A stretch of 64,000 nucleotides of DNA, taken from Escherichia coli (GTDB taxonomy: Bacteria; Pseudomonadota; Gammaproteobacteria; Enterobacterales; Enterobacteriaceae). This document shows, piece by piece, positions 6,396 to 34,092 of the stretch. Location of the stretch: assembly GCF_024298765.1 (NCBI RefSeq), contig NZ_CP101210.1; one strand, written 5' to 3'. The translations under genes were made by a program, and so were the position numbers. The notes beneath the pieces were generated by a model that was not told the origin of the DNA, made no database searches, and saw only the letters and a program-made list of their open reading frames with translations. Each line of letters begins with the position of its first letter. The first letter of the stretch is position 1.

Positions 6396-6959
<564 letters not shown>

Positions 6960-17415: not shown

Positions 17416-19275
17416 ATGAGCAAAGGAACGACCAGCCAGGATGCCCCGTTCGGGACATTATTGGGCTACGCCCCAGGTGGGGTAGCAATCTACTCTTCAG
17501 ATTACAGTTCTCTCGATCCGCAGGAATACGAAGATGACGCCGTATTCCGTAGCTATATCGACGACGAATATATGGGCCACAAATGGCAATGCGTTGAATT
17601 TGCTCGCCGTTTTCTCTTTCTGAATTACGGTGTGGTCTTCACTGACGTGGGTATGGCGTGGGAGATTTTCTCGCTGCGCTTCCTGCGTGAAGTGGTTAAT
17701 GACAACATCCTGCCATTGCAGGCATTTCCTAACGGCTCGCCGCGTGCGCCGGTCGCGGGTGCGCTTCTTATCTGGGATAAAGGCGGTGAATTTAAAGACA
17801 CTGGTCATGTCGCCATCATTACCCAATTGCATGGCAACAAAGTCCGTATTGCGGAACAGAACGTGATTCATTCCCCGTTACCGCAAGGGCAACAGTGGAC
17901 GCGCGAGCTGGAGATGGTGGTCGAAAACGGCTGCTATACCCTTAAAGACACTTTTGATGACACCACCATTCTCGGCTGGATGATCCAGACGGAAGATACT
18001 GAATACAGCTTACCGCAGCCGGAAATTGCAGGCGAGCTGTTGAAAATCAGCGGAGCGCGCCTGGAAAACAAAGGCCAGTTTGACGGTAAATGGCTGGATG
18101 AAAAAGATCCGCTACAAAACGCCTATGTGCAGGCCAACGGTCAGGTGATCAATCAGGATCCGTATCATTACTACACCATTACCGAGAGCGCAGAGCAGGA
18201 GCTGATTAAAGCCACCAACGAACTGCACCTGATGTATCTTCACGCAACCGACAAGGTGCTGAAAGATGACAACCTGCTGGCGCTGTTCGACATCCCAAAA
18301 ATCCTCTGGCCACGTTTGCGTCTCTCCTGGCAGCGTCGCCGTCACCATATGATCACCGGTCGTATGGATTTCTGTATGGACGAACGTGGCCTGAAGGTCT
18401 ACGAATACAACGCCGACTCCGCCTCCTGTCATACCGAAGCTGGCTTGATCCTCGAACGTTGGGCGGAGCAGGGCTATAAAGGCAACGGCTTCAATCCGGC
18501 GGAAGGGCTGATTAACGAACTGGCTGGTGCCTGGAAACACAGTCGTGCACGTCCGTTTGTCCATATCATGCAGGACAAAGATATCGAGGAAAACTATCAC
18601 GCGCAGTTTATGGAGCAGGCGCTGCACCAGGCGGGCTTTGAAACGCGTATCTTGCGCGGGCTGGATGAACTGGGCTGGGATGCTGCCGGGCAACTGATTG
18701 ATGGGGAAGGGCGACTGGTTAACTGCGTGTGGAAAACCTGGGCGTGGGAAACCGCGTTTGATCAGATTCGTGAAGTTAGCGACCGTGAGTTTGCTGCGGT
18801 GCCGATCCGTACCGGTCATCCGCAAAATGAAGTGCGTCTTATCGACGTATTGCTGCGCCCGGAAGTGCTGGTCTTTGAACCTCTGTGGACAGTGATCCCC
18901 GGCAACAAAGCGATTCTGCCGATCCTCTGGTCGCTGTTCCCGCACCATCGTTACCTGCTGGATACCGATTTCTCCGTGAATGATGAACTGGTGAAAACCG
19001 GTTATGCAGTGAAACCGATCGCCGGTCGCTGTGGCAGTAACATCGACCTCGTCAGCCATCATGAAGAGGTGCTGGACAAAACCAGCGGTAAATTTGCCGA
19101 GCAGAAAAACATCTATCAGCAACTGTGGTGTTTGCCGAAAGTGGACGGTAAATACATTCAGGTATGTACCTTCACCGTTGGCGGCAACTACGGTGGGACG
19201 TGTTTGCGCGGTGATGAATCACTGGTCATCAAAAAAGAGAGTGATATTGAACCGCTAATTGTGGTGAAAGAGTAA
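17416..19275 (+). CDS. gss: bifunctional glutathionylspermidine synthetase/amidase
   Basis: 619 aa MSKGTTSQDAPFG; N-terminal CHAP amidase Cys (WQCVEFARRF). Confidence 0.9.
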   Translation: MSKGTTSQDAPFGTLLGYAPGGVAIYSSDYSSLDPQEYEDDAVFRSYIDDEYMGHKWQCVEFARRFLFLNYGVVFTDVGMAWEIFSLRFLREVVNDNILPLQAFPNGSPRAPVAGALLIWDKGGEFKDTGHVAIITQLHGNKVRIAEQNVIHSPLPQGQQWTRELEMVVENGCYTLKDTFDDTTILGWMIQTEDTEYSLPQPEIAGELLKISGARLENKGQFDGKWLDEKDPLQNAYVQANGQVINQDPYHYYTITESAEQELIKATNELHLMYLHATDKVLKDDNLLALFDIPKILWPRLRLSWQRRRHHMITGRMDFCMDERGLKVYEYNADSASCHTEAGLILERWAEQGYKGNGFNPAEGLINELAGAWKHSRARPFVHIMQDKDIEENYHAQFMEQALHQAGFETRILRGLDELGWDAAGQLIDGEGRLVNCVWKTWAWETAFDQIREVSDREFAAVPIRTGHPQNEVRLIDVLLRPEVLVFEPLWTVIPGNKAILPILWSLFPHHRYLLDTDFSVNDELVKTGYAVKPIAGRCGSNIDLVSHHEEVLDKTSGKFAEQKNIYQQLWCLPKVDGKYIQVCTFTVGGNYGGTCLRGDESLVIKKESDIEPLIVVKE

Positions 19276-19290
19276 TACATGTTGTAGCAA

Positions 19291-19325
19291 CCCCGTACTG
19301 ATTATGAAGAATAATCAGTACGGGG
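19291..19325. terminator. perfect 15-bp-stem hairpin downstream of gss (terminator candidate)
   Basis: ccccgtactgattat-gaag-ataatcagtacgggg; no strong T-run follows on + strand. Confidence 0.45.
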
Positions 19326-19566
19326 ATTAATCAAAACATTCAACGTTTATATATTTCAATATTTATTTATTTAATATATGAATATATTAACCAGTGGAAT
19401 ACCTGTGTTTTGATTATTTCTAAAGATTTTGAATGAATGCTTATTGTCTGATACACAAGAAATAACACTCTTTTTATCGTTAAAAAAAGATATTTCACTT
19501 TGCCCATGCCGTTAAAGTCACTGATAATGCGTCCGTTCGTAAATTCAAAATGGCGTAATCTAATAT

Positions 19567-21066
19567 ATGCTAAATTTATTTGTTGGCCTTGATATATACA
19601 CGGGGCTTTTGTTATTACTTGCTCTGGCATTTGTGTTGTTCTACGAAGCAATCAATGGTTTTCATGACACGGCGAATGCGGTGGCAACCGTTATTTATAC
19701 TCGAGCCATGCAGCCACAGCTTGCCGTGGTGATGGCGGCATTTTTTAACTTTTTTGGCGTATTGCTAGGCGGACTTAGCGTTGCCTATGCCATTGTCCAT
19801 ATGTTACCAACCGATTTGTTGCTGAATATGGGGTCAACTCACGGCCTGGCGATGGTCTTTTCCATGCTGCTGGCGGCGATTATCTGGAACCTGGGAACGT
19901 GGTTCTTTGGTTTACCGGCCTCCAGTTCGCATACCTTGATTGGTGCGATTATCGGCATCGGTTTAACCAACGCGCTGTTAACCGGCTCATCGGTGATGGA
20001 TGCGTTAAACCTGCGTGAAGTGACCAAAATTTTCTCCTCGCTGATTGTTTCCCCTATCGTCGGCCTGGTCATTGCGGGAGGCCTGATATTCCTGCTGCGC
20101 CGCTACTGGAGCGGGACGAAAAAGCGTGACCGTATTCACCGCATTCCGGAAGATCGCAAAAAGAAAAAAGGCAAACGGAAGCCACCATTCTGGACGCGTA
20201 TTGCGCTGATTGTTTCCGCTGCGGGCGTGGCGTTTTCGCACGGTGCTAACGACGGGCAGAAAGGGATCGGCCTGGTGATGCTGGTACTGGTGGGGATTGC
20301 CCCTGCTGGTTTCGTCGTCAATATGAATGCGTCCGGCTATGAAATTACCCGTACCCGCGATGCCGTCACCAACTTCGAACACTACCTGCAACAGCATCCT
20401 GAACTGCCGCAGAAGTTGATTGCGATGGAACCTCCATTGCCTGCGGCATCGACTGATGGCACGCAAGTAACGGAGTTTCACTGTCATCCGGCAAATACCT
20501 TTGATGCGATTGCGCGCGTTAAAACGATGCTGCCAGGCAATATGGAAAGTTACGAGCCGTTAAGCGTGAGTCAGCGCAGCCAGCTGCGCCGCATTATGCT
20601 GTGCATCTCTGATACCTCCGCGAAGCTGGCGAAACTGCCAGGCGTCAGTAAAGAAGACCAGAACCTGCTGAAAAAACTGCGCAGCGATATGTTAAGCACC
20701 ATTGAGTACGCTCCGGTGTGGATCATCATGGCAGTAGCTCTGGCGCTCGGCATTGGCACCATGATTGGCTGGCGTCGTGTAGCGATGACCATCGGTGAGA
20801 AGATTGGTAAGCGCGGCATGACGTATGCGCAAGGCATGGCGGCACAAATGACGGCGGCAGTGTCTATCGGCCTTGCCAGTTATATTGGGATGCCCGTCTC
20901 CACAACACACGTCCTCTCGTCTGCGGTAGCAGGGACGATGGTGGTGGACGGCGGTGGGTTACAGCGTAAAACGGTAACCAGCATCCTGATGGCGTGGGTG
21001 TTTACTTTACCGGCGGCGATTTTTCTTTCTGGTGGGTTGTACTGGATAGCATTGCAGTTGATTTAA
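19567..21066 (+). CDS. pitB: low-affinity inorganic phosphate transporter
   Basis: 499 aa polytopic ORF of the PiT family. Confidence 0.88.
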
Positions 21067-21077
21067 CCTTCCTGAAA

Positions 21078-21112
21078 ATGCCCGGTCCTGGCGATCGGGC
21101 ATTTCCATTTTT
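21078..21112. terminator. bidirectional terminator between convergent pitB and yghT
   Basis: atgcccg...cgggcat hairpin followed by ttccatttttg. Confidence 0.55.
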
Positions 21113-21114
21113 GA

Positions 21115-21807
21115 CTAGTGATAACCACGCGCGGTCATAAAATCCGTAATCGCTTTTTCTGCATCAACCAGCACCTTTTCCAGTGGCTGATTGGCGTCGA
21201 TATCAACCAGTTGTGCACCGCCAAAGGTTAACTGTGGCGTTATGGCAATCTTCCTCGCCAGCGATTCCCGTTTATGGTCGGGTTTACGCGCGCAGGCAAC
21301 TTCAAGGTCAACATTGAGTTTGATGACCAGATCAGGCTTATGGCTCGCCATCCAGTGAAATGCTTTACGTTCCTGGCTTGCCAGCCATGAGACAAACCGG
21401 CCGCCTTCAACGTTAGGTGGGAACACCGTACCATCGTAAGCGCCAGGAATTTGGTCCTGAGGATAACGATCGGTTAAGACAATCAGCCCGCGACGACGAC
21501 AGGCGAGCATATGACGAAAGCGTAACAGTCGGCGGGCGACGAAAGCGGTGATCACCAGGGCCGGAACCGGACCCGGCAATTTTTTTGCCGTTTTCACTTC
21601 ATTTTTTTCAATAGTCTTGTGCAGAGACTTTCCCATCAACGGTAATTTTGTCACTGCACGACCGACATTTCCGGCCTGTTTTCCTAAATGAACTCTTTCG
21701 GCAGCACCATATTTTTCGACAACGGTAATAAGATGTTCACACACCGTTGACTTGCCTGAACCATCGCTACCAATAACGGCAATTAATGGAGGTGTTATTG
21801 ACTGCAT
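21115..21807 (-). CDS. yghT: P-loop NTPase-like protein (paralog 1 of 3)
   Basis: 230 aa; Walker [10 protein letters not shown]; shares DRYPQ and ARKPDH motifs with yghS and yghR. Confidence 0.8.
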
Positions 21808-21980
21808 GAATATATCCTTAAATTTAAATATCCATCCAAAATATTTATTTGATTAATATGTTTTTATGAAAGCGTAATTCAGGTTAATGTCACAATTAAC
21901 CATTGTCACAATAAGGTTGAACGGATATTCTGAGCACGGACCACGTAATATTCAATACATTATTTGCTGCCGGGTTTTTC

Positions 21981-22694
21981 GTGAATCAACGTAATATGTC
22001 AATAATTAATTCCACGCCAGTGCGTGTTATTGCCATTGTAGGATGTGATGGTTCAGGTAAATCGACCCTCACGGCAAGCCTGGTAAATGAACTGGCAGCA
22101 ACAATGCCAACAGAACACATTTATCTCGGGCAATCGTCCGGGCGAATTGGCGAATGGATTTCACAGCTCCCTGTTATTGGCGCACCTTTTGGGCGTTATC
22201 TGCGAAGTAAAGCGGCACATGTGCACGAAAAGCCCTCCACACCACCTGGCAATATTACTGCGCTGGTTATCTATCTGCTTTCCTGCTGGCGGGCGTACAA
22301 GTTTCGCAAAATGTTGTGTAAAAGCCAGCAAGGCTATCTGCTCATCACCGACCGCTACCCGCAGGTTGAAGTGCCGGGTTTTCGCTTTGATGGCCCGCAA
22401 TTGGCAAAAACCACGGGCGGTAACGGTTGGATAAAAATGTTAAGGCAGCGCGAGCTGAAGCTGTACCAATGGATGGCGTCTTATTTGCCCGTATTGTTGA
22501 TTCGTCTTGGCATTGATGAACAAACCGCGTTTGCGCGTAAACCTGACCACCAACTGGCGGCGTTACAGGAAAAAATCGCCGTTACGCCGCAACTGACATT
22601 TAATGGCGCAAAGATCCTTGAACTGGATGGTCGGCAACCCGCCGATGAAATTCTGCAAGCGTCACTACGCGCAATTCACGCCGCGCTTTCCTGA
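21981..22694 (+). CDS. yghS: P-loop NTPase-like protein (paralog 2 of 3)
   Basis: 237 aa from GTG (ATG alternative at 21996); Walker A GCDGSGKST. Confidence 0.8.
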   Translation: MNQRNMSIINSTPVRVIAIVGCDGSGKSTLTASLVNELAATMPTEHIYLGQSSGRIGEWISQLPVIGAPFGRYLRSKAAHVHEKPSTPPGNITALVIYLLSCWRAYKFRKMLCKSQQGYLLITDRYPQVEVPGFRFDGPQLAKTTGGNGWIKMLRQRELKLYQWMASYLPVLLIRLGIDEQTAFARKPDHQLAALQEKIAVTPQLTFNGAKILELDGRQPADEILQASLRAIHAALS

Positions 22695-22725
22695 TCACCA
22701 AAATGGATAGGGGATGATTTAACGA

Positions 22726-23484
22726 ATGGACGCACTACAAACACAAACTGTTAATAGTACAACCGCGCCGCAGCCCAACTACATTCCGGGGCTGATTGCG
22801 GTGGTCGGGTGTGATGGCACCGGTAAATCCACACTGACCACCGACCTGGTGAAATCGCTGCAACAACACTGGCAAACCGAGCGGCGCTATCTGGGGCTGC
22901 TCTCGGGCGAAGACGGCGACAAAATCAAACGATTGCCGTTGGTTGGCGTCTGGCTCGAACGGCGACTGGCGGCCAAATCCTCGAAAACCCAAAGCATGAA
23001 AACCAAATCTCCAGCGCTATGGGCGGCGGTGATTATGTACTGCTTCTCGCTGCGAAGAATGGCGAATCTACGCAAGGTTCAGCGACTGGCGCAAAGTGGC
23101 GTTCTGGTGGTCAGCGATCGCTTCCCGCAGGCTGAAATTTCGGGCTTTTATTATGACGGACCGGGGATCGGCGTCGAACGTGCGACCGGGAAAATCAGCA
23201 TGTTTCTGGCGCAGCGCGAACGGCGTTTATACCAACAAATGGCGCAATACCGTCCTGAATTAATCATTCGTTTGGGGATTGATATTGATACTGCCATCTC
23301 CCGCAAGCCTGACCATGACTATGCCGAGCTGCAGGACAAAATCGGCGTCATGTCGACGATTGGCTATAACGGCACAAAAATTCTTGAGATTGATTCCAGA
23401 GCGCCCTACAGCGAAGTGCTGGAACAGGCACAGAAGGCGGTTTCTCTGGTTGCCATCGTTTCTGACCGCCGAAGTTTAACTTAA
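22726..23484 (+). CDS. yghR: P-loop NTPase-like protein (paralog 3 of 3)
   Basis: 252 aa; Walker A GCDGTGKST; DRFPQ; SRKPDH. Confidence 0.8.
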   Translation: MDALQTQTVNSTTAPQPNYIPGLIAVVGCDGTGKSTLTTDLVKSLQQHWQTERRYLGLLSGEDGDKIKRLPLVGVWLERRLAAKSSKTQSMKTKSPALWAAVIMYCFSLRRMANLRKVQRLAQSGVLVVSDRFPQAEISGFYYDGPGIGVERATGKISMFLAQRERRLYQQMAQYRPELIIRLGIDIDTAISRKPDHDYAELQDKIGVMSTIGYNGTKILEIDSRAPYSEVLEQAQKAVSLVAIVSDRRSLT

Positions 23485-23529
23485 GGCTGGCGGGATACTT
23501 TTTACTATCAACGATAAGGTCAGGCTGAA

Positions 23530-24879
23530 TTGGCGGGTTTTAACATCAAACATTGGTTTGCAGATGGCGCGTTTCGCACCATTATTCGCAATAGCGCCTG
23601 GTTAGGCTCCAGTAATGTCGTGAGCGCTTTGCTGGGTCTGTTGGCGCTCTCGTGTGCCGGTAAAGGGATGACGCCCGCCATGTTTGGCGTACTGGTGATT
23701 GTACAATCGTACGCCAAGTCGATCAGCGATTTTATTAAGTTTCAGACATGGCAGCTGGTGGTTCAGTACGGAACACCAGCATTAACCAACAATAATCCGC
23801 AGCAATTCCGCAATGTCGTCTCATTTTCCTTCTCGCTGGATATCGTCAGCGGCGCGGTGGCGATTGTCGGCGGCATTGCCTTACTCCCTTTTCTTTCCCA
23901 TTCATTAGGTCTGGATGACCAAAGCTTTTGGCTGGCAGCGCTGTATTGCACGCTCATTCCTTCAATGGCTTCCTCCACGCCGACCGGCATTCTGCGTGCG
24001 GTAGATCGCTTCGATCTAATTGCTGTACAGCAAGCGACGAAACCTTTTCTGCGCGCAGCGGGGAGCGTCGTTGCCTGGTATTTTGACTTTGGTTTTGCGG
24101 GTTTTGTTATTGCCTGGTACGCCTCGAATCTTGTTGGCGGCACCATGTACTGGTGGTTTGCCGCACGTGAATTACGCCGCAGAAATATCCATAACGCGTT
24201 CAAATTGAATCTGTTTGAGTCTGCCCGACACATCAAAGGCGCGTGGAGTTTTGTCTGGTCAACCAACATTGCCCATTCCATCTGGTCGGCGCGTAATTCG
24301 TGCAGCACAGTGTTGGTGGGGATCGTGTTAGGACCCGCTGCCGCCGGGTTATTTAAAATCGCCATGACATTCTTCGACGCCGCCGGAACGCCAGCGGGTT
24401 TACTGGGCAAAAGTTTTTACCCAGAGGTGATGCGTTTAGATCCGCGTACCACCAGACCGTGGTTGTTAGGCGTGAAGTCAGGTTTACTGGCGGGCGGAAT
24501 CGGTATTCTGGTGGCGCTCGCGGTGTTGATTGTCGGCAAGCCGCTCATTTCGCTGGTGTTTGGCGTTAAGTATCTCGAAGCGTATGACCTGATTCAGGTG
24601 ATGCTGGGCGCAATTGTGATCTCGATGCTGGGCTTCCCTCAGGAGTCATTGCTATTGATGGCGGGAAAACAGCGCGCTTTTCTCGTGGCGCAAACCATCG
24701 CCTCAATCGGCTACATCGTATTGCTGTTCATGTTCTGTCATCTGTTTGGCGTGCTGGGAGCAGCGTTTGCTTATTTCGGTGGTCAATGTCTGGATGTGGT
24801 GCTTTCGCTAATTCCGACCTTAAAGGCATTTTTTCAGCGCCATTCCTTGCTTTATAACGCAGCCGGAGAGAAATCCTGA
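23530..24879 (+). CDS. yghQ: MOP/Wzx-like multi-pass membrane flippase-family protein (start uncertain)
   Basis: Long hydrophobic ORF; first in-frame ATG at 23668; frame open upstream to TTG at 23530. Confidence 0.65.
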   Translation: MAGFNIKHWFADGAFRTIIRNSAWLGSSNVVSALLGLLALSCAGKGMTPAMFGVLVIVQSYAKSISDFIKFQTWQLVVQYGTPALTNNNPQQFRNVVSFSFSLDIVSGAVAIVGGIALLPFLSHSLGLDDQSFWLAALYCTLIPSMASSTPTGILRAVDRFDLIAVQQATKPFLRAAGSVVAWYFDFGFAGFVIAWYASNLVGGTMYWWFAARELRRRNIHNAFKLNLFESARHIKGAWSFVWSTNIAHSIWSARNSCSTVLVGIVLGPAAAGLFKIAMTFFDAAGTPAGLLGKSFYPEVMRLDPRTTRPWLLGVKSGLLAGGIGILVALAVLIVGKPLISLVFGVKYLEAYDLIQVMLGAIVISMLGFPQESLLLMAGKQRAFLVAQTIASIGYIVLLFMFCHLFGVLGAAFAYFGGQCLDVVLSLIPTLKAFFQRHSLLYNAAGEKS

Positions 24880-25703
24880 TGATGAGAAAATATTTCCCGC
24901 TAGAGGCGAGCGAGCGTCTATTTGTTGCGATTGAAGAAGATGATGTCGTTGATGCACAGGTCAGTTTGCCGCCGACTATCGCACTAAGTTGTACCACCGA
25001 AATCATCCATGATAATTACGCGTTATGCCTGCAATTCTGGCTCAATGGCGTCAATCGCCAGGAGTTACTGCGTTTAATATGCAAACAGGCCAAAGGCGAT
25101 GAGCTGACTGCTGATGAGCGCAAACAATTTAAATACATGCGAGCGCGCTACAAGCACCTGCGTTTTGCGCAACGGCTGTATTTAAAGAAGCATCAGGCCG
25201 GATTTTTATTCGGCAAAACGACCGTTTTTTTGGGGCGTTTTCAGGACGGCTTTCGTAACGGTAAGAAAAATATTGTGTCGTATTACGGCAACCTGTTACG
25301 GGTTTATTTAAGCTCTCCGGTCTGGTCGTTGGTGAACTATTCATTACGCCATAGCCAGTTAGAAAGCGTAAGCGGTTTTATTGCCTATCGGCAAAAGCAA
25401 ATGCATACCCTGAAAGAGATAATTGCCAAACCGCGACTAACCGGCAGGGAATTTCATGATGTGCGAAAAATCATCAGCCAGCAGGTTTCTTATTACGACA
25501 CCCTAAGATCGCTTGATCCTGAAAATAAAGAAGCGTTACAGATTTCCCGCTTCCTCGCCGCCATTAATGGCCTGATGGGGGATAAACACGACGACATGGT
25601 GGCGGATGATATGGAAAACCGCCAGTCGTATGATGCACCGATGGCGCTGGATAGCGATATTCGCCAGCGCTTAGAACTGCTGATTTCGCGTTTTCCGCTA
25701 TAA
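24879..25703 (+). CDS. hypothetical cytoplasmic protein, 274 aa (island gene)
   Basis: ATG overlaps yghQ stop (TGATG); GGAGAG RBS at 24865-24870; no domain recognised. Confidence 0.6.
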   Translation: MMRKYFPLEASERLFVAIEEDDVVDAQVSLPPTIALSCTTEIIHDNYALCLQFWLNGVNRQELLRLICKQAKGDELTADERKQFKYMRARYKHLRFAQRLYLKKHQAGFLFGKTTVFLGRFQDGFRNGKKNIVSYYGNLLRVYLSSPVWSLVNYSLRHSQLESVSGFIAYRQKQMHTLKEIIAKPRLTGREFHDVRKIISQQVSYYDTLRSLDPENKEALQISRFLAAINGLMGDKHDDMVADDMENRQSYDAPMALDSDIRQRLELLISRFPL

Positions 25704-25711
25704 CCGGAGCA

Positions 25712-26275
25712 ATGATGTCATCTCGTTTGATTATTGCGCTGATTATCATGCTCTTAGCCCCGGGTGTGCAGGCACACAATTTCGTCACTGGCAAAACGGT
25801 TACCCCCGTTTATATCCAGGAAGGCGGCGAGCTGCTTCGGAATAGCGACGACGAAATTCACTACCAAAAGTGGAACAGCACCCAATTGGCGGGAAAAGTT
25901 CGCATTATTCAGTATATCGCCGGGCGTAAGTCGGCGAAGAAAAAGAACTCACTGTTAATTAAAGCAGTTGAAGCGGCAAACTTTCCGCAGGATCGTTTTC
26001 AGCCCACCACCATTGTGAACACTGATGATGCCATCTTTGGTACCGGCTATTTTGTCGTTGGCAAAATCGAAAAAAATAAACGCCGCTATCCATGGGCGCA
26101 ATTCGTTATTGACGGCAATGGACAGGGACGCGTTGCCTGGCACTTGCAGGAGCAGAGTTCAACCATTCTGGTGCTGAATAAAACCGGGCAAATTCAGTGG
26201 GCAAAGGACGGCAGCCTGACGCCGGAAGAGGTAGATCATGTCATTGCGCTGGCGCAGAAGCTGATCAATGAATAA
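25712..26275 (+). CDS. YtfJ-family secreted/periplasmic protein paralog
   Basis: 187 aa; signal peptide MMSSRLIIALIIMLLAPGVQA; strong resemblance to E. coli YtfJ as recalled (KVRxxQHIAGR, TTIVNTDDAI, VQWAKDGxLTPEEV). Confidence 0.65.
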   Translation: MMSSRLIIALIIMLLAPGVQAHNFVTGKTVTPVYIQEGGELLRNSDDEIHYQKWNSTQLAGKVRIIQYIAGRKSAKKKNSLLIKAVEAANFPQDRFQPTTIVNTDDAIFGTGYFVVGKIEKNKRRYPWAQFVIDGNGQGRVAWHLQEQSSTILVLNKTGQIQWAKDGSLTPEEVDHVIALAQKLINE

Positions 26276-26304
26276 AAATTCAAAGGATTGAGGGCGTTAG
26301 TGAG

Positions 26305-27375
26305 ATGAAGCTGGTTGAACACTACATCATGCGTGGTACGCGCCGTCTGGTGCTGATTATCGTCGGTTTTCTGATCTTTATTTTCGCCAGCTACTCCGCA
26401 CAGCGTTATCTGACCGAAGCGGCAAATGGGACATTAGCTCTTGATGTTGTGCTGGATATCGTTTTCTACAAAGTGCTGATTGCACTGGAGATGTTGTTAC
26501 CTGTTGGACTGTATGTGTCAGTTGGCGTGACGCTAGGGCAGATGTATACCGACTCGGAAATTACCGCTATCTCTGCGGCGGGGGGCAGTCCGGGACGCTT
26601 GTACAAAGCCGTTCTTTATCTGGCGATACCGCTAAGTATTTTTGTCACCCTTCTGTCGATGTATGGTCGTCCGTGGGCTTATGCGCAGATTTATCAACTG
26701 GAGCAACAGTCACAGTCGGAGCTGGATGTTCGCCAGTTGCGGGCAAAGAAATTTAACACTAACGATAACGGACGAATGATCCTTTCGCAGACGGTTGATC
26801 AGGATAATAATCGCCTGACTGATGCGCTGATTTATACTTCTACTGCTAATCGAACCCGCATTTTCCGCGCCCGTTCGGTTGATGTGGTTGACCCATCACC
26901 TGAGAAACCGACCGTTATGTTGCATAACGGGACCGCCTATCTTCTCGATCATCAGGGGCGTGACGACAACGAACAGATCTACCGTAATCTGCAATTACAT
27001 CTGAATCCGCTGGATCAAAGCCCTAACGTCAAACGCAAAGCAAAATCGGTCACGGAGCTGGCGCGCTCCGCCTTTCCTGCCGATCATGCCGAACTGCAAT
27101 GGCGACAAAGCCGTGGCCTGACAGCATTGTTGATGGCGCTGCTGGCCATTTCATTAAGTCGGGTAAAACCGCGGCAAGGGCGATTTTCAACGTTATTGCC
27201 ACTGACGTTGCTGTTTGTTGCCATTTTTTATGGCGGCGACGTCTGCCGTACGCTGGTGGCTAACGGCGCGATTCCCCTCATTCCTGGTTTGTGGTTAGTA
27301 CCCGGACTCATGCTAATGGGCCTGCTGATGTTGGTCGCACGCGACTTCTCTTTGCTGCAGAAATTTTCCCGATGA
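26305..27375 (+). CDS. LptF-like permease (YjgP/YjgQ family) paralog
   Basis: 356 aa; 6-TM pattern with large periplasmic loop; YTDSEIT and KPRQGRF motifs resembling LptF. Confidence 0.7.
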   Translation: MKLVEHYIMRGTRRLVLIIVGFLIFIFASYSAQRYLTEAANGTLALDVVLDIVFYKVLIALEMLLPVGLYVSVGVTLGQMYTDSEITAISAAGGSPGRLYKAVLYLAIPLSIFVTLLSMYGRPWAYAQIYQLEQQSQSELDVRQLRAKKFNTNDNGRMILSQTVDQDNNRLTDALIYTSTANRTRIFRARSVDVVDPSPEKPTVMLHNGTAYLLDHQGRDDNEQIYRNLQLHLNPLDQSPNVKRKAKSVTELARSAFPADHAELQWRQSRGLTALLMALLAISLSRVKPRQGRFSTLLPLTLLFVAIFYGGDVCRTLVANGAIPLIPGLWLVPGLMLMGLLMLVARDFSLLQKFSR

Positions 27376-28451
27376 ATGTTTTCAGTCGCTATTTAATCCG
27401 TCATCTCTTTCTCGGTTTTGCCGCCGCCGCAGGGCTATTGCTGCCGCTTTTTACCACCTTCAACCTGATTAACGAACTGGATGATGTCAGCCCGGGTGGT
27501 TATCGCTGGACTCAGGCGGTGCTGGTGGTGCTGATGACCTTACCGCGCACACTGGTCGAACTTTCGCCGTTTATCGCCTTATTGGGAGGGATTGTCGGCC
27601 TGGGGCAGTTATCGAAAAACAGTGAGCTTACCGCCATTCGCAGCACGGGGTTTTCTATCTTCCGTATTGCACTGGTGGCGCTGGTTGCCGGGATATTGTG
27701 GACTGTTTCATTAGGCGCGATAGATGAGTGGGTGGCGTCGCCATTGCAGCAACAGGCGCTGCAAATCAAATCGACTGCCACTGCGTTGGGGGAGGACGAT
27801 GACATTACCGGCAATATGCTGTGGGCCAGGCGTGGTAATGAATTTGTGACGGTGAAATCGCTGAACGAGCAGGGCCAGCCGGTGGACGTGGAGATATTTC
27901 ATTACCGCGATGATCTCTCGCTCGAATCCTACATTTATGCGCGCAGTGCTACCATTGAAGACGACAAAACGTGGATCCTGCATGGTGTGAATCATAAAAA
28001 ATGGCTGAATGGCAAAGAAACGCAGGAAACATCTGATAATCTTCCCTGGCAATCGGCCTTCACCAGTATGAATCTTGAAGAGTTATCGATGCCGGGAAAT
28101 ACTTTTTCTGTCCGTCAACTTAATCATTACATCCATTATTTGCAGGAAACCGGGCAACCCAGCAGCGAATACCGCCTTGCACTGTGGGAAAAACTGGGAC
28201 AACCCATCTTGACCCTGGCGATGATTTTGCTGGCTGTGCCGTTTACCTTTAGCGCCCCGCGTTCGCCTGGGATGGGTAGCCGTCTCGCTGTAGGCGTCAT
28301 CGTTGGCTTACTCACCTGGATCAGCTATCAAATCATGGTCAATCTGGGATTGTTATTTGCGTTGAGCGCACCTGTTACCGCGCTCGGTTTACCGGTAGCG
28401 TTTGTGCTGGTGGCGTTGAGCCTGGTGTATTGGTATGACAGACAACATTAA
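27372..28451 (+). CDS. LptG-like permease (YjgP/YjgQ family) paralog
   Basis: ATG at 27372 overlaps upstream stop (ATGA); MNVFSRYLIRHLF N-terminus typical of LptF/G family; 359 aa. Confidence 0.7.
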   Translation: MNVFSRYLIRHLFLGFAAAAGLLLPLFTTFNLINELDDVSPGGYRWTQAVLVVLMTLPRTLVELSPFIALLGGIVGLGQLSKNSELTAIRSTGFSIFRIALVALVAGILWTVSLGAIDEWVASPLQQQALQIKSTATALGEDDDITGNMLWARRGNEFVTVKSLNEQGQPVDVEIFHYRDDLSLESYIYARSATIEDDKTWILHGVNHKKWLNGKETQETSDNLPWQSAFTSMNLEELSMPGNTFSVRQLNHYIHYLQETGQPSSEYRLALWEKLGQPILTLAMILLAVPFTFSAPRSPGMGSRLAVGVIVGLLTWISYQIMVNLGLLFALSAPVTALGLPVAFVLVALSLVYWYDRQH

Positions 28452-28485
28452 ACCCGCCGTGGCGCAACACCACAGCGGGCTCACA

Positions 28486-29658
28486 TTACTGCTTCAGAGT
28501 AGCAAATGCCTGAATGATGGCATCGATTTGCTCACGACTGTGGGCAGCGTTTACGCTACAGCGCAGCAGCGTGATGCCTGCAGGCGCGGCAGGTGGCAGG
28601 ATAAGATTCACATAAACGCCCAGCGAAATAAGCTCGCGCCAGATGCGTAAACCTTCCTCTTTCGAACCGATTATTACTGGCACTACCGGGCTAATATGTG
28701 AACTTAACTCATAACCCAGTTTTTGCAGACCGTCATACAGATGGTTGGCGTTATCCATCAGTTTTTGCCGCAGCTCTGGTTGTGTGGAAATGGTTCTTAA
28801 CGACGAGCGCACGGTCGCAATGCAGGACGGAGAAGGAGAGGCGGTAAAAATATACGGGCGGCTGCCGTAGCGCAGCACTTCCATCGCTTCTGAACCCACG
28901 GCAAAACCACCAATGGAAGCCAAACTTTTACTGAAGGTGCCGACGATAATATCCACGTCGTCTTCAACGCCAACGGCTTCAACCAGTCCGCGGCCTGTTG
29001 CGCCTAACACGCCAAACGAATGTGCTTCATCGACAATCAAATAACCACCGAGACGACGTTTGATATCAACAATTTCTGCCAGCGGCGCAACGTCACCGAG
29101 CATACTGTAGATGCCTTCAACGATAATAATCGCCTCTTTCGCCCGTTCACCGAGGCGGACCATGCGCCGTTCCAGATCGTTGACGTCATTATGGCGGAAA
29201 CGAATAATCTCTGCGCCGCCGAGAGAACAGGCGTCATAAATACTGGCGTGGCTGTCGGCATCCAGTAACACCACGGCGTTATGGTCGGCAAGTGCGCTGA
29301 TGACACCTAAATTAGCGGTATAACCGGTTGAAAAAACGATAGCGGTAGGGCGATTGAAAAACTCGGCAATCTCTTTCTCTAACGCCAGATGCGGCGCATA
29401 ACTGCCGTTTGCCATACGAGAACCGGTGGTGCCAGTGCCTTGGGCCGCTAACGCTGCCTGACCTTCGCGGATAGCATCATGATTAAAGGTTAAACCGAGA
29501 TAATTATTGGTCCCGGCCAGAATCACTTTTTTATTGCCGATCCGGCCTTCGGTGGCGGAATACACTTCATCAATACAGGTGCCAAATGGTGTTAACCCGT
29601 TGTCACTAAATTGCAGGCGCTCGCCAGCAAGGCGCGCATATTTATCGTATAGCCCCAT
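28486..29658 (-). CDS. alpha-oxoamine synthase, serine palmitoyltransferase-like (PLP-dependent)
   Basis: 390 aa; DEAHSFG and GTFSKSLAS motifs (Lys244 codon at 28927-28929) typical of SPT/KBL/AONS family. Confidence 0.75.
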   Translation of the reverse strand: MGLYDKYARLAGERLQFSDNGLTPFGTCIDEVYSATEGRIGNKKVILAGTNNYLGLTFNHDAIREGQAALAAQGTGTTGSRMANGSYAPHLALEKEIAEFFNRPTAIVFSTGYTANLGVISALADHNAVVLLDADSHASIYDACSLGGAEIIRFRHNDVNDLERRMVRLGERAKEAIIIVEGIYSMLGDVAPLAEIVDIKRRLGGYLIVDEAHSFGVLGATGRGLVEAVGVEDDVDIIVGTFSKSLASIGGFAVGSEAMEVLRYGSRPYIFTASPSPSCIATVRSSLRTISTQPELRQKLMDNANHLYDGLQKLGYELSSHISPVVPVIIGSKEEGLRIWRELISLGVYVNLILPPAAPAGITLLRCSVNAAHSREQIDAIIQAFATLKQ

Positions 29659-29906
29659 TATTTATTCTCCAGCCATGGAAGTAGAGTTTCCATTAATTGC
29701 GCAGGGGTTTTGACATCCAGCAGAATATTAATAGGAATGGAAATATCGAATCTGTCTTCCAGCATCATTAAGAGATCCATCACTTTGATCGACTCCAGGC
29801 CAAGATCGTTGACGAGATCGCTGTCGGGCTTAATTTCCACACCGTTTTCGACCAAATCCTGTAAACAGGAAAGGATGTAATCCATTACTATTTCACGATT
29901 TACCAT
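29658..29906 (-). CDS. dedicated acyl carrier protein
   Basis: 82 aa; DLGLESIKVMDLLMMLEDRF helix-2 region with candidate phosphopantetheine Ser; stop overlaps AOS start (TAATG). Confidence 0.65.
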   Translation of the reverse strand: MVNREIVMDYILSCLQDLVENGVEIKPDSDLVNDLGLESIKVMDLLMMLEDRFDISIPINILLDVKTPAQLMETLLPWLENK

Positions 29907-29937
29907 AGAAACGTTAACACACCTTTAAACAAGACAA

Positions 29938-30852
29938 TCAAAATAGCCCGTTGCGTAATGCGTGTTCCAGGCTAATCCCGGGAAACCAATTAATATCTTC
30001 AGAAATACGGTTATTATTTGCCGACCAGTCGGCGTGGGTTAATTCACGAATTTTCGAGCGGGTCAGCATAGGTTCTTTACCTGCCAGGCGACTCAACGCA
30101 GTACTGATATCCGCAAGGCAGGTGAGTAGCGGCAGAGGAATGCCAACCATCCGCACAGAACCACAACGGGCTTCGGCGGCAAGCTGTCGTACGCGTTGCC
30201 AGTCATAGCCGCCAGCGACGCCATCGCATAATTCATAGGTTTGCGTCTGTACAGTTTCGGCGTTTAACCACTGACCCACTGCTTGCGCAAAATCGGTGAC
30301 GTGCAGGAAAGAGAGTTGTGTATCTGGCGCACCAAGTCGTGGCAGCAGGCCGCGCAGCATCCAGTCAAACAGCGGTTTTAACTCTTTATCGCCGGGACCA
30401 TACACGGCTGTCGGGCGAAAAATGCCCAGCGTAATTTCGTCAGCCATTGCGATCAGTCGTTGTTCGGCGACGTGTTTGGAATTTGCGTACCAGGAGAGTT
30501 CGGGATGGCGCGCCGCCAGCGAAGAGATAAACAGAAAACGTTGGCAAAAGCCGCTCTCTTTTGCCGCTTGCATCAGGCGCAGGCTGCCGTCAACGTTACA
30601 GCGGGTAAAAATCTCTTCTTTGTGTCCGCGCACTTGTCCGGCGCAATGGACCACCGCGCTGGCTCCGGCAACCAGTTCGCTAAGCGAATGTGTATCTTCC
30701 AGCGAACCGCGCACCCAGATGAGATTATCATTGACGTGAGCGCGGGCAGTACGCGTCAATGTGCGAACGTGAAAGCCGCGGGCGAGCAGGTTATCGATAA
30801 TATATTTACCGATAAACCCGGTAGCGCCCGTCACCGCGACAGTTTGATTCAT
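29938..30852 (-). CDS. NAD(P)-dependent epimerase/dehydratase-fold reductase
   Basis: ATG at 30852 (MNQTVAVTGATGFIGKYI), 304 aa; YANSK catalytic dyad; track ORF has an N-terminal extension overlapping the upstream gene. Confidence 0.7.
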   Translation of the reverse strand: MNQTVAVTGATGFIGKYIIDNLLARGFHVRTLTRTARAHVNDNLIWVRGSLEDTHSLSELVAGASAVVHCAGQVRGHKEEIFTRCNVDGSLRLMQAAKESGFCQRFLFISSLAARHPELSWYANSKHVAEQRLIAMADEITLGIFRPTAVYGPGDKELKPLFDWMLRGLLPRLGAPDTQLSFLHVTDFAQAVGQWLNAETVQTQTYELCDGVAGGYDWQRVRQLAAEARCGSVRMVGIPLPLLTCLADISTALSRLAGKEPMLTRSKIRELTHADWSANNNRISEDINWFPGISLEHALRNGLF

Positions 30853-32573
30853 GCCAGGGATTCCTGCACATGAAGGCTTGCAGCATAAGCCTTCTGATAA
30901 CGTTTTTTCGCTTCCGCACGGGCAGGCTTGCCGGAGGACGTTCGGGGAATACTGTGGGGCGGCAACAGATCGATAGCCGCGGTCACGCCAAATTCGCTTT
31001 GGATCCGTGCTACCAGTGCGTGGATAAGCTGCCCACGACGTTCTTCGTCGCTGATCCGACACTGGATCTGCAAAATGATTTTTTCCTGGGCGGTAACAAA
31101 AGCAATCGCATCGCCAGAATGAATTTCCGGTTCCTGTTCCGCAATGTATTCAATATCCTGCGGCCAGATATTACGGCCACGAATAATAATCAGATCTTTA
31201 ATGCGTCCGGTGACATACAGATAACCGTCCAGCAGATAACCGAGGTCGCCGGTGTCTAACCAGCCCGTCGCGGCAATCTCGTCTTGCGAAACCTGGTCGC
31301 CAAAGTACCCGCTCATCAGGCTGGGGCCGGAGATGCAAATATGGCCTACCACACGTTCCGCGACAGGTATATCTGCTTCATTGCGGATTTCAATGCCATG
31401 TTCCGGCAACGCTTTACCGCAGTTGACGAAAGTCGATACGGCGCGTGTTTCAGCACCCGGCGCGACGGCTTTACCCTGGTATTCGAGGATGTCGCGATCC
31501 ACTTCGTTAACCACAACCCCGCAGGCTTCATCAGAGAAGCTGACAGCCAGCGCATTTTCTGCCAGTCCGTAGCACGGCATGAAAGTTTTATCGTCAAAGT
31601 TAACCTGACGAAAACATTCAGCGAATTGATGGAGTTGTTCTGCGGAGATCGGTTCTGCTCCAATACCAGCGACGCGCCAGCAGGAAAGATCCAGTTCAGC
31701 GAGATCTTTTTCATTCACGCGGCGCTGGCACAATTCATAGCCAAACGGCGGTGCAACGGAAACGGTGCCGCGATTTTTACTGATCAATTTAAGCCATTGC
31801 AGAGGACGCATGGCAAAATCCTGAGTGCGCAAATAATCTACTGAAAGCTGCGTGGCGACGGGGGTCAGGAGAAAGCCGACCAGTCCCATATCATGGTAGA
31901 AAGGCAGCCAGGAGACGCAGCGGTCGCCAGGGCGTAATTTAATGCCATCGTGGCTTATAGCACGTAGATTAGCCATCACTTCGTGATGGGTGATAATGAC
32001 GCCACGGGGAAAACGGGTGCTGCCGGAGGTGTACTGGAGGTAGGCGATATCGTTCGGAACTGGACGCTGGAGCGCAACATCGGCTTCCGGTAATGCCTTA
32101 AACCAGGCGTGGCTTAAAACATGTAATTCGGGGTTGTTGTTATGCGTCGCGGCATTGACCAGCGGTAACCACTCATCACCAGTGATAATGGCTGCGGGCT
32201 GGCAACTTGCCAGTAAACCCTGCAGTTTGGCGCTCCAGGAATCCCGCTGACCGACGCCCATTGGAATCGCCAACGGGACGGCGACTAAGCCGGCACACTG
32301 GCAGGAAAAAAAAGCCTCTACAAACCCGCTACTCGTTTCGGCAATCAGCGCCACGCGATCGCCTTTTTTCAGGTTCAGCGATAACAACCGCTTCGCACCA
32401 GCTTCGGCACGCGCTTTTAACGTCTGATATTCCAGTTGATCTTCAAGTTGGCAACGTCTGTCATAAAAATTCATTCCGGCGCTACTCAGAGCGGCGTAGT
32501 CCAAAGCATCAACCAGCGTTGGAAAATCGGCATAGCGCATAGGTAGGGAATGCGTAAAGATTTTATTAGACAT
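30849..32573 (-). CDS. fatty acyl-AMP ligase / acyl-ACP synthetase-like adenylating enzyme
   Basis: About 574 aa from ATG at 32573; YTSGSTRFPRG core motif; GRIKDLIIIRGRNIWPQDIE; stop overlaps next start. Confidence 0.7.
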   Translation of the reverse strand: MSNKIFTHSLPMRYADFPTLVDALDYAALSSAGMNFYDRRCQLEDQLEYQTLKARAEAGAKRLLSLNLKKGDRVALIAETSSGFVEAFFSCQCAGLVAVPLAIPMGVGQRDSWSAKLQGLLASCQPAAIITGDEWLPLVNAATHNNNPELHVLSHAWFKALPEADVALQRPVPNDIAYLQYTSGSTRFPRGVIITHHEVMANLRAISHDGIKLRPGDRCVSWLPFYHDMGLVGFLLTPVATQLSVDYLRTQDFAMRPLQWLKLISKNRGTVSVAPPFGYELCQRRVNEKDLAELDLSCWRVAGIGAEPISAEQLHQFAECFRQVNFDDKTFMPCYGLAENALAVSFSDEACGVVVNEVDRDILEYQGKAVAPGAETRAVSTFVNCGKALPEHGIEIRNEADIPVAERVVGHICISGPSLMSGYFGDQVSQDEIAATGWLDTGDLGYLLDGYLYVTGRIKDLIIIRGRNIWPQDIEYIAEQEPEIHSGDAIAFVTAQEKIILQIQCRISDEERRGQLIHALVARIQSEFGVTAAIDLLPPHSIPRTSSGKPARAEAKKRYQKAYAASLHVQESLA

Positions 32574-32600
32574 ATACACCACGAAAAAATTGGATATCAA

Positions 32601-32943
32601 AAATAAAATGACAATAATGCGGTGGATTATATAGGCATAAAAGATAAATGAGATAGTATTTTCATCAGTGTGAAAATGAACATTGATTTAAATAATGAGT
32701 TTGAGTTTTTTTGTTTTTATTGTGAATGATATTTAATTTATGAATATATTAAGAAGAAGCCTTGTCCGGTCGCCTTAAATCGACAAAAGGCATTGTGGCG
32801 CTTCTGTGTAGTCTCTGACCTTATCGTAATCATTAATAATACTATTTATTCGTCGTTTGTATTCATTGGGTTGATTGTTAAGGTGCCGTTCGTTGCTGTT
32901 GCAACCTGTTTGTCACCGTTAATTATTTGTTACCCACAGAACT
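32601..32943. promoter_or_regulatory. AT-rich divergent intergenic region (promoters for lipid operon and yghO)
   Basis: About 340 bp markedly AT-rich with A/T tracts, flanked by divergent start codons. Confidence 0.5.
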
Positions 32944-34086
32944 ATGGAATGCGATCTGCTGATGATTAAAATTGAAAAAGTAATTAATAAAAATGACCTT
33001 AAGGCATTTATCGCTTTTCCGTCATCACTTTATCCCGACGATCCAAACTGGATACCCCCTTTATTCATTGAACGCAACGAGCATTTGTCTGCGAAAAATC
33101 CGGGGACGGACCATATCATCTGGCAGGCGTGGGTGGCAAAAAAAGCGGGGCAGATAGTTGGGCGTATTACCGCGCAAATCGATACCTTGCACCGCGAGCG
33201 TTACGGCAAAGATACCGGTCATTTCGGCATGATTGACGCCATTGATGATCCGCAGGTTTTTGCCGCGTTGTTTGGCGCAGCGGAAGCGTGGTTGAAGTCA
33301 CAAGGTGCAAGTAAGATCAGCGGTCCTTTCAGCCTGAATATCAATCAGGAAAGCGGATTACTGATTGAAGGTTTCGATACACCACCCAGTGCGATGATGC
33401 CACACGGTAAACCGTGGTATGCCGCGCATATTGAACAACTGGGTTATCACAAAGGCATTGATTTACTGGCGTGGTGGATGCAGCGAACCGATCTCACTTT
33501 CTCTCCGGCGCTAAAAAAACTGATGGATCAGGTGCGCAAAAAAGTGACCATTCGCTGCATCAATCGCCAGCGGTTTGCCGAAGAGATACAGATCCTGCGT
33601 GAGATTTTCAATTCTGGCTGGCAGCACAACTGGGGATTTGTGCCGTTTACCGAACATGAATTCGCGACCATGGGCGATCAACTTAAATATCTGGTGCCGG
33701 ACGATATGATCTACATCGCTGAGATTGATTCTGCACCCTGCGCGTTTATTGTTGGCTTGCCGAACATCAACGAGGCGATTGCCGATCTGAACGGATCGCT
33801 CTTTCCCTTCGGCTGGGCAAAATTGCTGTGGCGTTTGAAAGTCAGCGGTGTGCGAACTGCGCGAGTGCCGCTGATGGGCGTGCGGGACGAGTATCAGTTC
33901 AGCCGCATCGGCCCGGTAATTGCGCTGTTATTGATTGAAGCCTTACGCGATCCGTTTGCCCGTCGGAAGATCGATGCGCTGGAGATGTCATGGATCCTCG
34001 AAACCAATACAGGCATGAATAACATGCTGGAACGCATTGGGGCGGAGCCGTACAAGCGTTACCGATTGTATGAAAAGCAGATTTGA
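32944..34086 (+). CDS. yghO: GNAT-fold acyltransferase-like protein (uninterrupted reading frame)
   Basis: 380-aa ORF from ATG 32944 (alternative ATG 32962); divergent from lipid operon. Confidence 0.65.
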   Translation: MECDLLMIKIEKVINKNDLKAFIAFPSSLYPDDPNWIPPLFIERNEHLSAKNPGTDHIIWQAWVAKKAGQIVGRITAQIDTLHRERYGKDTGHFGMIDAIDDPQVFAALFGAAEAWLKSQGASKISGPFSLNINQESGLLIEGFDTPPSAMMPHGKPWYAAHIEQLGYHKGIDLLAWWMQRTDLTFSPALKKLMDQVRKKVTIRCINRQRFAEEIQILREIFNSGWQHNWGFVPFTEHEFATMGDQLKYLVPDDMIYIAEIDSAPCAFIVGLPNINEAIADLNGSLFPFGWAKLLWRLKVSGVRTARVPLMGVRDEYQFSRIGPVIALLLIEALRDPFARRKIDALEMSWILETNTGMNNMLERIGAEPYKRYRLYEKQI

Positions 34087-34092
34087 TGGCAG

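Follow-up and report, generated by a model that had tools for sequence, protein, structure and literature searches.

Three thymidylate-kinase-fold paralogs and a CHAD-fold partner as a candidate head-group module of the Escherichia coli ceramide locus

What do three related P-loop proteins do beside a set of lipid genes in Escherichia coli? The stretch of DNA that we analyzed (the window, 64,000 nucleotides of contig NZ_CP101210.1) is E. coli chromosome from the hyb-yghU-gss-pitB-ygh-glc segment, and one 10.2-kb stretch of it has 100% identity to many complete genomes. The proteins are encoded by yghT (positions 21115–21807, minus strand, 230 aa), yghS (21981–22694, plus strand, 237 aa, GTG start) and yghR (22726–23484, plus strand, 252 aa). 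For the identical region of E. coli 2014C-3338, RefSeq gives the names yghT and yghS and lists yghR as an unnamed hypothetical protein. An original prediction, made from the DNA letters, had described the three as tandem paralogs resembling small kinases, next to a flippase-like gene and a "lipid island", and had suggested that they phosphorylate or modify a lipid head group. We identify the island as the sphingolipid (ceramide) locus already known from E. coli. Head-group phosphorylation is the best-supported reading, drawn from genomic context, and the kinase trio provides the best candidates for phosphate addition to the E. coli sphingolipid. Beyond the original prediction are the identity of the locus, an ancient triplication into three orthologous lineages, the divergent orientation of yghT, and a cryptic member of the module with a CHAD fold.

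Fold and family of the three kinases

The open reading frames (ORFs) of all three genes lie exactly where they had first been placed, and the proteins are full-length paralogs whose 34–44% identity is far beyond chance. BLASTP alignments over ~217 residues were significant for every pair (E 3e-47 to 1e-62), with 37% identity between YghT and YghS (E 3e-54), 34% between YghT and YghR (E 3e-47) and 44% between YghS and YghR (E 1e-62). A three-way alignment has 55 invariant columns. The motifs by which the family was first recognized are present in all three proteins: G(S/C)DG(S/T)GKST, the Walker A motif, reads GSDGSGKST, GCDGSGKST and GCDGTGKST in YghT, YghS and YghR, (T/S)DR(Y/F)PQ reads TDRYPQ, TDRYPQ and SDRFPQ, and (A/S)RKPDH reads ARKPDH, ARKPDH and SRKPDH, respectively. 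The array is not strictly tandem, because yghT is divergent from yghS-yghR across a 173-bp spacer, so that of the proposed tandem triplet the paralogy stands and the strict tandem order does not. YghT, YghS and YghR are soluble, basic, cytoplasmic proteins, and all three, together with the 274-aa protein discussed below, have isoelectric points of 9.2–9.8.

The trio has a thymidylate-kinase (TMK) fold in which the P-loop, the DRX motif (here DR[YF]) and the LID are intact, which agrees with the expectation of small kinases. A profile of eight family members matched T. maritima thymidylate kinase (3hjn) at E 5e-7. In this alignment DRYPQ falls on the kinase DRY motif, ...TAxARKPDH on the LID segment, and the family motif LGxxSGxxG on the REPGGTxxGE acceptor loop. 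By structure, the trio is nearest to the nucleoside monophosphate (NMP) kinases, in which the acceptor is a phosphate, and the third-best structural match of YghT is the S. tokodaii homolog of the PPK3 catalytic subunit (2plr/5h70).

The RefSeq label "dTMP kinase" for YghT and YghS reflects a fold-level resemblance and not a family assignment, because the scores lie below the cut-offs. Against TIGR00041 (dTMP kinase) the three proteins reach 25.7, 24.8 and 30.9 bits, 3-fold below the curated cut-off of 83.25, and the best i-Evalue among them for Pfam Thymidylate_kin (PF02223) is 0.02. Membership in the true dTMP kinases was rejected with scores so far under the cut-offs. The trio also differs from dTMP kinases in a family-specific basic insertion of ~25 residues (residues about 55–80, with a low predicted local distance difference test score, pLDDT), in acceptor-loop signatures that are specific to each clade, and in a genomic context of lipid export instead of nucleotide metabolism.

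Remaining matches in the sequence libraries were confined to the P-loop. An ABC ATPase was rejected, as the matches span only the ~25-residue P-loop at E 0.01 or worse and LSGG occurs in none of the three proteins, in agreement with the lack of an ABC signature noted in the original prediction. A role in anti-phage defense was rejected because PADLOC gave only P-loop-level matches, at E 2e-4 or worse. LpxK, the lipid A 4'-kinase, belongs to the P-loop kinases and modifies its membrane-lipid substrate by phosphorylation on the cytoplasmic side. Neither an LpxK-like nor a CpgB-like lipid kinase was found by sequence match or among the top-60 fold matches, and the trio has no DAGK_cat match and no GGDG[TS] motif, as CpgB membership would require. 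No PPK2 domain (PF03976) was matched in Pfam, and PPK2 is not the closest fold.

Conservation of the trio and its genomic neighborhood

A search of cluster representatives shows a large family, with 2929 proteins at E <=1e-3, of which 284 reach E <=1e-30. From a scan of one genome per species we collected 79 loci that span Enterobacterales, Xanthomonadales, Betaproteobacteria and others, compared them by tblastn with the island proteins and by ORF clustering, and took the neighborhood as ±10 kb around the kinases. The layout R(-) S(-) | T(+) recurs in Escherichia, Citrobacter, Serratia, Erwinia, Pantoea, Rosenbergiella, Dyella, Rhodanobacter and Luteibacter, and also in Carnimonas, Methylotenera, Rhodocyclaceae, Halioglobus and many metagenome-assembled genomes. 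A neighbor-joining tree built from 94 non-redundant sequences resolves T, S and R as pure monophyletic clades of 45, 24 and 25 members, so the triplication long predates Enterobacterales. The Walker A motif is kept in 220 of 223 copies, and DR[YF]PQ and RKPDH are at least 90% conserved within each clade. The acceptor loop has its own invariants in each: HLGKQxGNxGR in T, YLGQSSGxI..WI in S and YLGxxSGExGDKIK in R. With the catalytic motifs conserved and the acceptor loops specific to each clade, these sequence patterns fit three active enzymes with three different acceptors, as opposed to redundant copies or pseudo-enzymes.

Natural fusions join S to R (P0121) and T to R (P0122 and a 493-aa ORF of Oecophyllibacter), and point to a functional or physical coupling between the paralogs. 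In Oecophyllibacter saccharovorans (L002:9836-11317) the deposited 438-aa call truncates this 493-aa ORF, which has complete T-like and R-like kinase domains. Its neighbors are a CHAD-like gene, GT4 glycosyltransferases, two Wzx-like genes and a His_Phos_1 gene. Further afield, a large set of ~500-aa proteins combines an NTP_transf_5-like nucleotidyltransferase with this kinase domain (P0160, P0165, P0168, P0195, P0208 and P0238), and in variants of these fusions the kinase domain is joined to GT4 or to a MOP flippase. The next gene in the P0160 and P0168 loci encodes a small protein of 231–243 aa, P-loop-like in the P0168 locus. Two loci with ~500-aa fusions were examined, of which one was polysaccharide-type and the other uninformative. 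Through the NTP_transf_5, GT4 and MOP-flippase fusions in polysaccharide-type loci, the wider kinase-domain family is tied to the synthesis of envelope glycoconjugates and lipids in general.

In the window, the trio stands beside a lipid locus. A gene for a yghQ-type MOP (Wzx-like) flippase family protein (23530–24879, plus strand; intact, 449 aa; weak NCBIfam MOP-flippase match, E 1.4e-8) directly follows yghR, as originally noted, and the lipid genes begin a few genes downstream. The locus comprises spt, acpR, cerR, aasR and yghO together with LptF2/G2. It holds all the genes of the Rhodobacteria-type sphingolipid locus (spt, acpR, aasR, cerR/epi and aca/cerS, the last being yghO). The first four are on the minus strand: spt, serine palmitoyltransferase (28486–29658; NF047599, 598.6 bits vs. 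a cut-off of 500), acpR, a specialized acyl carrier protein (29658–29906; RefSeq annotation, function in PMC9386255), a cerR/epi-type NAD-dependent reductase (29938–30852; annotation, a library match and the legend to Figure 9 of PMC9386255), and aasR, a fatty acyl-AMP ligase or acyl-AcpR synthetase (30849–32600, with the RefSeq start at 32573; NF006624, 860.9 bits vs. 600). On the plus strand, yghO encodes an acyl-CoA N-acyltransferase (ceramide synthase-type, "aca"; 32944–34086), identified by annotation and as the aca ortholog (PMC9386255). The two transport genes, paralogs of lptF (26305–27375, plus strand; TIGR04407, 319.8 bits vs. 230) and of lptG (27372–28451, plus strand; TIGR04408, 310.1 bits vs. 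240), are of LptF2 and LptG2 type. The coordinates of the second follow the RefSeq start, which overlaps the lptF2 stop by 4 nt.

Much of the ceramide pathway has been described before. The E. coli BL21 orthologs of aasR, acpR and spt have been assayed, with serine palmitoyltransferase activity demonstrated, epi and aca have been assigned, and yghO/ECD_02850 was given as the aca ortholog (PMC9386255). A 2026 preprint draws the UTI89 operon beside the Caulobacter locus, in which LptF2/G2 are required for sphingolipid transport (bioRxiv 10.64898/2026.04.12.717747). The literature we searched gives no function for yghR, yghS or yghT and no description of the E. coli sphingolipid product. It mentions the three genes incidentally (a silkworm screen, an FlhDC SELEX table, where SELEX is systematic evolution of ligands by exponential enrichment, and genome-reduction lists), and nothing was found that joins thymidylate kinase with sphingolipid. 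The locus is thus already known, and what we did not find in the literature is the deep conservation of the trio there, its three orthologous lineages, and the CHAD-fold identity of the 274-aa gene. Searches of the annotation, libraries and motifs in the E. coli locus recovered no glycosyltransferase, CDP-alcohol transferase or DAGK_cat kinase, and no Caulobacter Cpg head-group genes. The kinase trio therefore provides the only recognizable candidate head-group enzymes of the locus.

The link to the lipid island goes beyond adjacency in a single genome, since the trio is embedded in a ceramide cluster across several proteobacterial orders. The gene order in Serratia and Pantoea, with the trio at the center of the cluster, is yghO | aasR cerR acpR spt | yghT | yghS yghR yghQ 274-aa ytfJ lptF2 lptG2. 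Among loci with full flanks, Spt is encoded within 10 kb in 33 of 34 of Enterobacterales type and in 8 of 19 others. Examples of the trio with ceramide genes outside Enterobacterales come from Dyella, Rhodanobacter, Luteibacter, Carnimonas, Methylotenera and Rhodocyclaceae. The order in Methylotenera/Rhodocyclaceae-type loci is aasR cerR (acpR) spt yghQ ... R S (274-aa gene, methyltransferase or GT4) T PAP2 PAP2 NodT RND. The yghQ-type flippase gene is found in 50 of 83 loci, and a Polysacc_synt_3 domain is recorded for the Serratia and Pantoea YghQ orthologs. Outside Enterobacterales, the neighborhood adds an LpxE-like PAP2 phosphatase (23 loci), a second, SepP/UppP-like PAP2 (14 loci), an OlsC/LpxO-like lipid hydroxylase (15 loci), a homolog of LmtA, the lipid A 1-phosphate O-methyltransferase (E 2e-34; 10 loci), a GT4 glycosyltransferase (8 loci) and an LptA-like protein (6 loci). 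As a whole, these neighbors suggest lipid-phosphate chemistry followed by export.

Some loci encode a second kind of lipid kinase. In 24 loci (L003:1416-1778, L004:1698-2060, L068 from Carnimonas and 21 more), yghO or the kinases have a linked DgkA-family gene (PF01219, 119–120 aa), which may be not the housekeeping dgkA but a lipid-hydroxyl kinase dedicated to the cluster. The operon of L028, a locus from a metagenome-assembled genome labeled Pseudomonas sp., contains a gene for a DAGK_cat lipid kinase of YegS/CpgB type (6392-7453; Pfam E 2e-15), placed between lptG2 and the genes of the TMK-like trio. Genes at this locus share ~70% identity with their E. coli counterparts. The presence of DgkA or DAGK_cat enzymes alongside the trio is consistent with a separate first phosphorylation of a hydroxyl group, after which the TMK-like enzymes act. 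Nudix enzymes split pyrophosphate bonds, and a Nudix or isopentenyl-diphosphate-isomerase-like gene follows the T-type kinase and PAP2 in L061, L074 and L076 (Halioglobus and Pseudomonadales genomes).

The most faithful companion, after the kinases themselves, is an unannotated gene for a 274-aa protein (24879–25703, plus strand), present in 65 of 83 loci. It stands beside a lone T-type kinase in Nitrotoga- and Methylotenera-type loci and is found in Oecophyllibacter as well. The protein has no sequence match in Pfam, NCBIfam or the PDB, including none to Pfam CHAD (PF05235). Its fold, though, is the two-lobed, all-helical CHAD fold with conserved histidine, arginine and lysine, and the family alignment has R88, K92, H93, R95, H105, H193, R196, H237 and D238 as invariant residues. 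Weak PF05235 matches are seen elsewhere in the family: one member (P0386) has E-values of 0.0076 and 3.9 for its two halves, and a precomputed match is recorded for 7 of the 120 listed homologs. CHAD domains are described as polyphosphate-binding modules (bioRxiv 10.1101/2024.08.28.610084), so the partner of the kinases is a divergent CHAD-fold protein of polyphosphate-binding type.

Of 5426 complete E. coli genomes, 4604 contain the trio at >=80% coverage and 4067 the spt block. About 680 genomes lack the trio, and ~540 genomes (K-12 type) keep yghT, yghS and yghR in the absence of the spt-aasR block.

A candidate head-group module and its alternatives

How might such a module act on a ceramide? 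We think it very probable that the trio is part of this envelope-lipid pathway, and about an even matter whether it phosphorylates the lipid head group directly. Our leading proposal, to which we give slightly less than an even chance from the genomic context, is that the three kinases serve as dedicated phosphotransferases and equip ceramide with an anionic head group of phosphate or, possibly, oligophosphate. It draws on the fold chemistry, in which ATP phosphorylates a phosphate monoester, together with three active, non-redundant paralogs, a CHAD-type partner and the flanking lipid genes. We infer from these the lipid acceptor, the order of steps and the oligophosphate product. Together with the CHAD-fold protein, the trio would act on the cytoplasmic side of the inner membrane, and phosphate would be added to the (dihydro)ceramide made by AasR, AcpR, Spt, CerR and YghO, each paralog serving one acceptor in a short series. 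By the chemistry of the parent fold (X-P + ATP -> X-PP), a ceramide phosphate could be lengthened stepwise to a di- or oligophosphate head group, with the CHAD-like protein binding the anionic chain as it grows. YghQ would next flip the product, and LptF2/G2 (as LptB2F2G2) would extract it. In other taxa it might be trimmed by the PAP2 phosphatases or capped by the LmtA-like methyltransferase. That the product carries a phosphoanhydride (oligophosphate) chain is an argument by analogy, and we consider it rather unlikely. Such a product would share its phosphoanhydride with known lipid pyrophosphates, namely lipid A 1-diphosphate (made by LpxT), undecaprenyl pyrophosphate (Und-PP) and diacylglycerol pyrophosphate, the product of phosphatidate kinase. 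The PAP2 neighbors resemble LpxE and Und-PP phosphatases. To our knowledge no ceramide di- or oligophosphate has been reported, and we know of no identified gene for the plant phosphatidate kinase. LpxE and PgpB have lipid mono- and diphosphates as substrates (PMC6581854, PMC7413402), and LpxT is a periplasmic PAP2-type transferase with Und-PP as donor, unlike an ATP-dependent P-loop kinase (PMC2229476).

Would the three kinases instead phosphorylate three hydroxyl groups? Each could act on a different one (the C1-OH or C3-OH of the long-chain base, or an OH of the N-acyl chain), or one of them could be a ceramide kinase that replaces Caulobacter CpgB, giving a ceramide that carries one, two or three phosphates and lacks phosphoanhydride bonds. 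We hold this to be unlikely. The nearest structural relatives of the trio are the NMP kinases and not hydroxyl kinases, the DgkA and DAGK_cat enzymes encoded in many of the loci would make a TMK-like ceramide kinase redundant there, and the CHAD-fold partner is left unexplained.

The pairing of TMK-fold paralogs with a CHAD protein has a close parallel in archaea. In Sulfolobus, PPK3 pairs a catalytic with a regulatory subunit, each a paralog with the thymidylate-kinase fold, and the operon for the two also encodes a CHAD protein, PPX and SixA (bioRxiv 10.1101/2024.08.28.610084). The two kinases (Saci_2019/Saci_2020, with Saci_2021 as the CHAD protein) make polyphosphate, and they illustrate that TMK-annotated proteins can lack dTMP phosphorylation (bioRxiv 10.1101/2024.08.28.610084). 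The E. coli module, known here from its genes, is alike in architecture, co-encoding TMK-fold paralogs with a CHAD-fold protein. It differs in having three paralogs, all with intact motifs, where PPK3 has two, in having no PPX neighbor, and in sitting in a sphingolipid and Lpt cluster. No specific sequence relationship to cPPK3 or rPPK3 was found: the family profile matches 2plr (STK_15430, a cPPK3 homolog) at E 0.085 over the P-loop only, and bacterial TMKs score better. That the trio and the CHAD protein form a membrane-directed bacterial counterpart of PPK3, which builds a phosphoanhydride chain (di-, tri- or oligophosphate) on ceramide for export to the outer membrane, seems to us a doubtful extension of this parallel. 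If true, some three quarters of E. coli strains, along with many beta- and gammaproteobacteria, would export an undescribed lipid class by way of YghQ and LptB2F2G2.

The same parallel raises the alternative that the trio and the CHAD-like protein are a PPK3-like heteromer that makes or consumes inorganic polyphosphate, some paralogs being regulatory as in Sulfolobus, and supplies or buffers phosphate or energy for envelope-lipid modification with the lipid itself untouched. This we regard as quite improbable. All three clades keep the full set of catalytic motifs and none resembles an inactive regulatory subunit. Neither the missing PPK2 match nor the P-loop-level similarity to cPPK3 indicates a specific affinity, no PPX gene is nearby (a SixA-like His_Phos_1 gene occurs only at the Oecophyllibacter locus), and E. 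coli already possesses PPK1. The tight embedding among flippase, Lpt and PAP2 genes points instead to a lipid substrate.

A soluble product is the next possibility. The three could be soluble small-molecule or nucleotide kinases, as the RefSeq label "dTMP kinase" would have it, that make an activated head-group precursor, or a phosphorylated one, for another enzyme to attach to the lipid. The TMK fold and the weak TMK-family matches speak for this, as do the distant NTP_transf_5, GT4 and MOP-flippase fusions in polysaccharide-type loci, which fit a logic of phosphorylation followed by activation, and the Caulobacter head group, which is built from soluble phosphoglycerate via nucleotidyltransferases. 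Such precursor kinases are nevertheless quite improbable here: the scores of 24.8–30.9 bits are well short of the dTMP-kinase cut-off, E. coli has a separate, essential tmk, the E. coli locus holds no recognizable attaching transferase, and three conserved paralogs would be odd for a soluble pathway that has no partner enzymes.

In Caulobacter, CpgB is a ceramide kinase with a DAGK_cat/LCB5 fold and a GGDG motif, not a P-loop enzyme, and the other head-group enzymes are a CDS-like protein, a CDP-alcohol-transferase-like protein and nucleotidyltransferases. Both systems have the ceramide core genes and LptF2/G2 in one sphingolipid locus. In contrast to the CpgA-D system, the E. coli-type loci are devoid of Cpg genes and have the TMK-like trio together with the CHAD-like gene, a set that looks like an alternative head-group module. 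The place of the Cpg enzymes is thus taken by three TMK-fold kinases and a CHAD-fold protein that standard annotation has missed or mislabeled ("dTMP kinase", "hypothetical").

Several points weigh against head-group phosphorylation by the trio. The proposal is drawn from genomic context, and its oligophosphate part is by analogy with a system to which the sequence similarity is confined to the P-loop. K-12 transposon mutants of yghQ, yghR, yghS and yghT had no marked phenotype in a silkworm screen, and deletion of yghQ brought only a two-fold shift in the minimum inhibitory concentration of chlorhexidine. The kinases have no membrane segment, and they keep TMK-like elements (the FSxxR helix), so a nucleotide-like acceptor is possible. 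The ~540 E. coli genomes with the trio and no spt block could indicate a sphingolipid-independent role, or could hold remnants. Finally, of the 19 loci outside Enterobacterales that have full flanks, 11 lack a ceramide gene in the 10 kb on either side. These may serve a different envelope lipid, or spt may lie elsewhere in the genome. An acceptor other than ceramide (lipid A or lipopolysaccharide core, undecaprenyl phosphate or a glycolipid), with the spt linkage secondary, would account for these 11 loci, which carry LptF/G-like, LptA-like, LpxE-like and UppP/SepP-like PAP2, LmtA-like and GT4 genes, for the Oecophyllibacter locus with its GT4s, second Wzx-like gene and no spt in the 21 kb covered, and for the K-12-type strains that keep the trio without spt, and we judge it very improbable even so.

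About 75% of complete E. coli genomes (the 4067 of 5426 above) have an intact ceramide-synthesis block whose product and head-group installation are undescribed in the literature that we searched, and named candidate genes for an enterobacterial sphingolipid head-group pathway make the question directly testable. An anionic surface lipid, as suggested here, would bear on sensitivity to cationic peptides, outer-membrane integrity and host recognition. The module also extends the pairing of TMK-fold kinases and CHAD, recently tied to archaeal polyphosphate synthesis, to bacterial envelope biology.

Transcription units and other features of the locus

From yghS to the lptG paralog, eight consecutive genes are separated by gaps of 45 bp or less, or overlap. 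A hairpin with a 16-bp stem (28449–28483, minus strand), likely a terminator, lies between the convergent lptG2 and spt. A second strong hairpin (21076–21104, 12-bp stem) was observed between the convergent pitB and yghT. The two are likely bidirectional terminators that flank the kinase-transport block. Given the short gaps and overlaps and the strong hairpins at both ends, the arrangement is consistent with a single operon from yghS to lptG2 and a divergent yghT. The spacer between yghT and yghS (21808–21980, 173 bp, AT-rich, GC about 0.41) is the presumed promoter region. A sigma-70-like scan of it gave one weak match (21903–21931), no better than in shuffled controls, and is uninformative because matches are as frequent in shuffled sequence. 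For the equivalent K-12 yghS/yghT spacer, an FlhDC peak from genomic SELEX is listed (PMC9962212). No structured RNA or riboswitch reached the Rfam gathering threshold in positions 19000–35000.

Between the CHAD-fold gene and lptF2 lies a gene for a YtfJ-family protein (25712–26275, plus strand; TIGR01626, 212.5 bits vs. a cut-off of 151.1), which is confined to Enterobacterales-type loci. Its N-terminus, MMSSRLIIALIIMLLAPGVQA, looks like a signal peptide by eye. The start of the lptG paralog is uncertain, as a mechanical ORF begins at a GTG at 27291 (27291–28451, 386 aa) and the RefSeq start at 27372 gives 359 aa. On the other side of the trio, pitB (19567–21066), which encodes an inorganic phosphate transporter, is convergent to yghT. 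This adjacency was seen in only 11 loci, all of Enterobacterales type, and is therefore probably coincidental, although a phosphate transporter beside a phosphate-consuming module is still worth noting.

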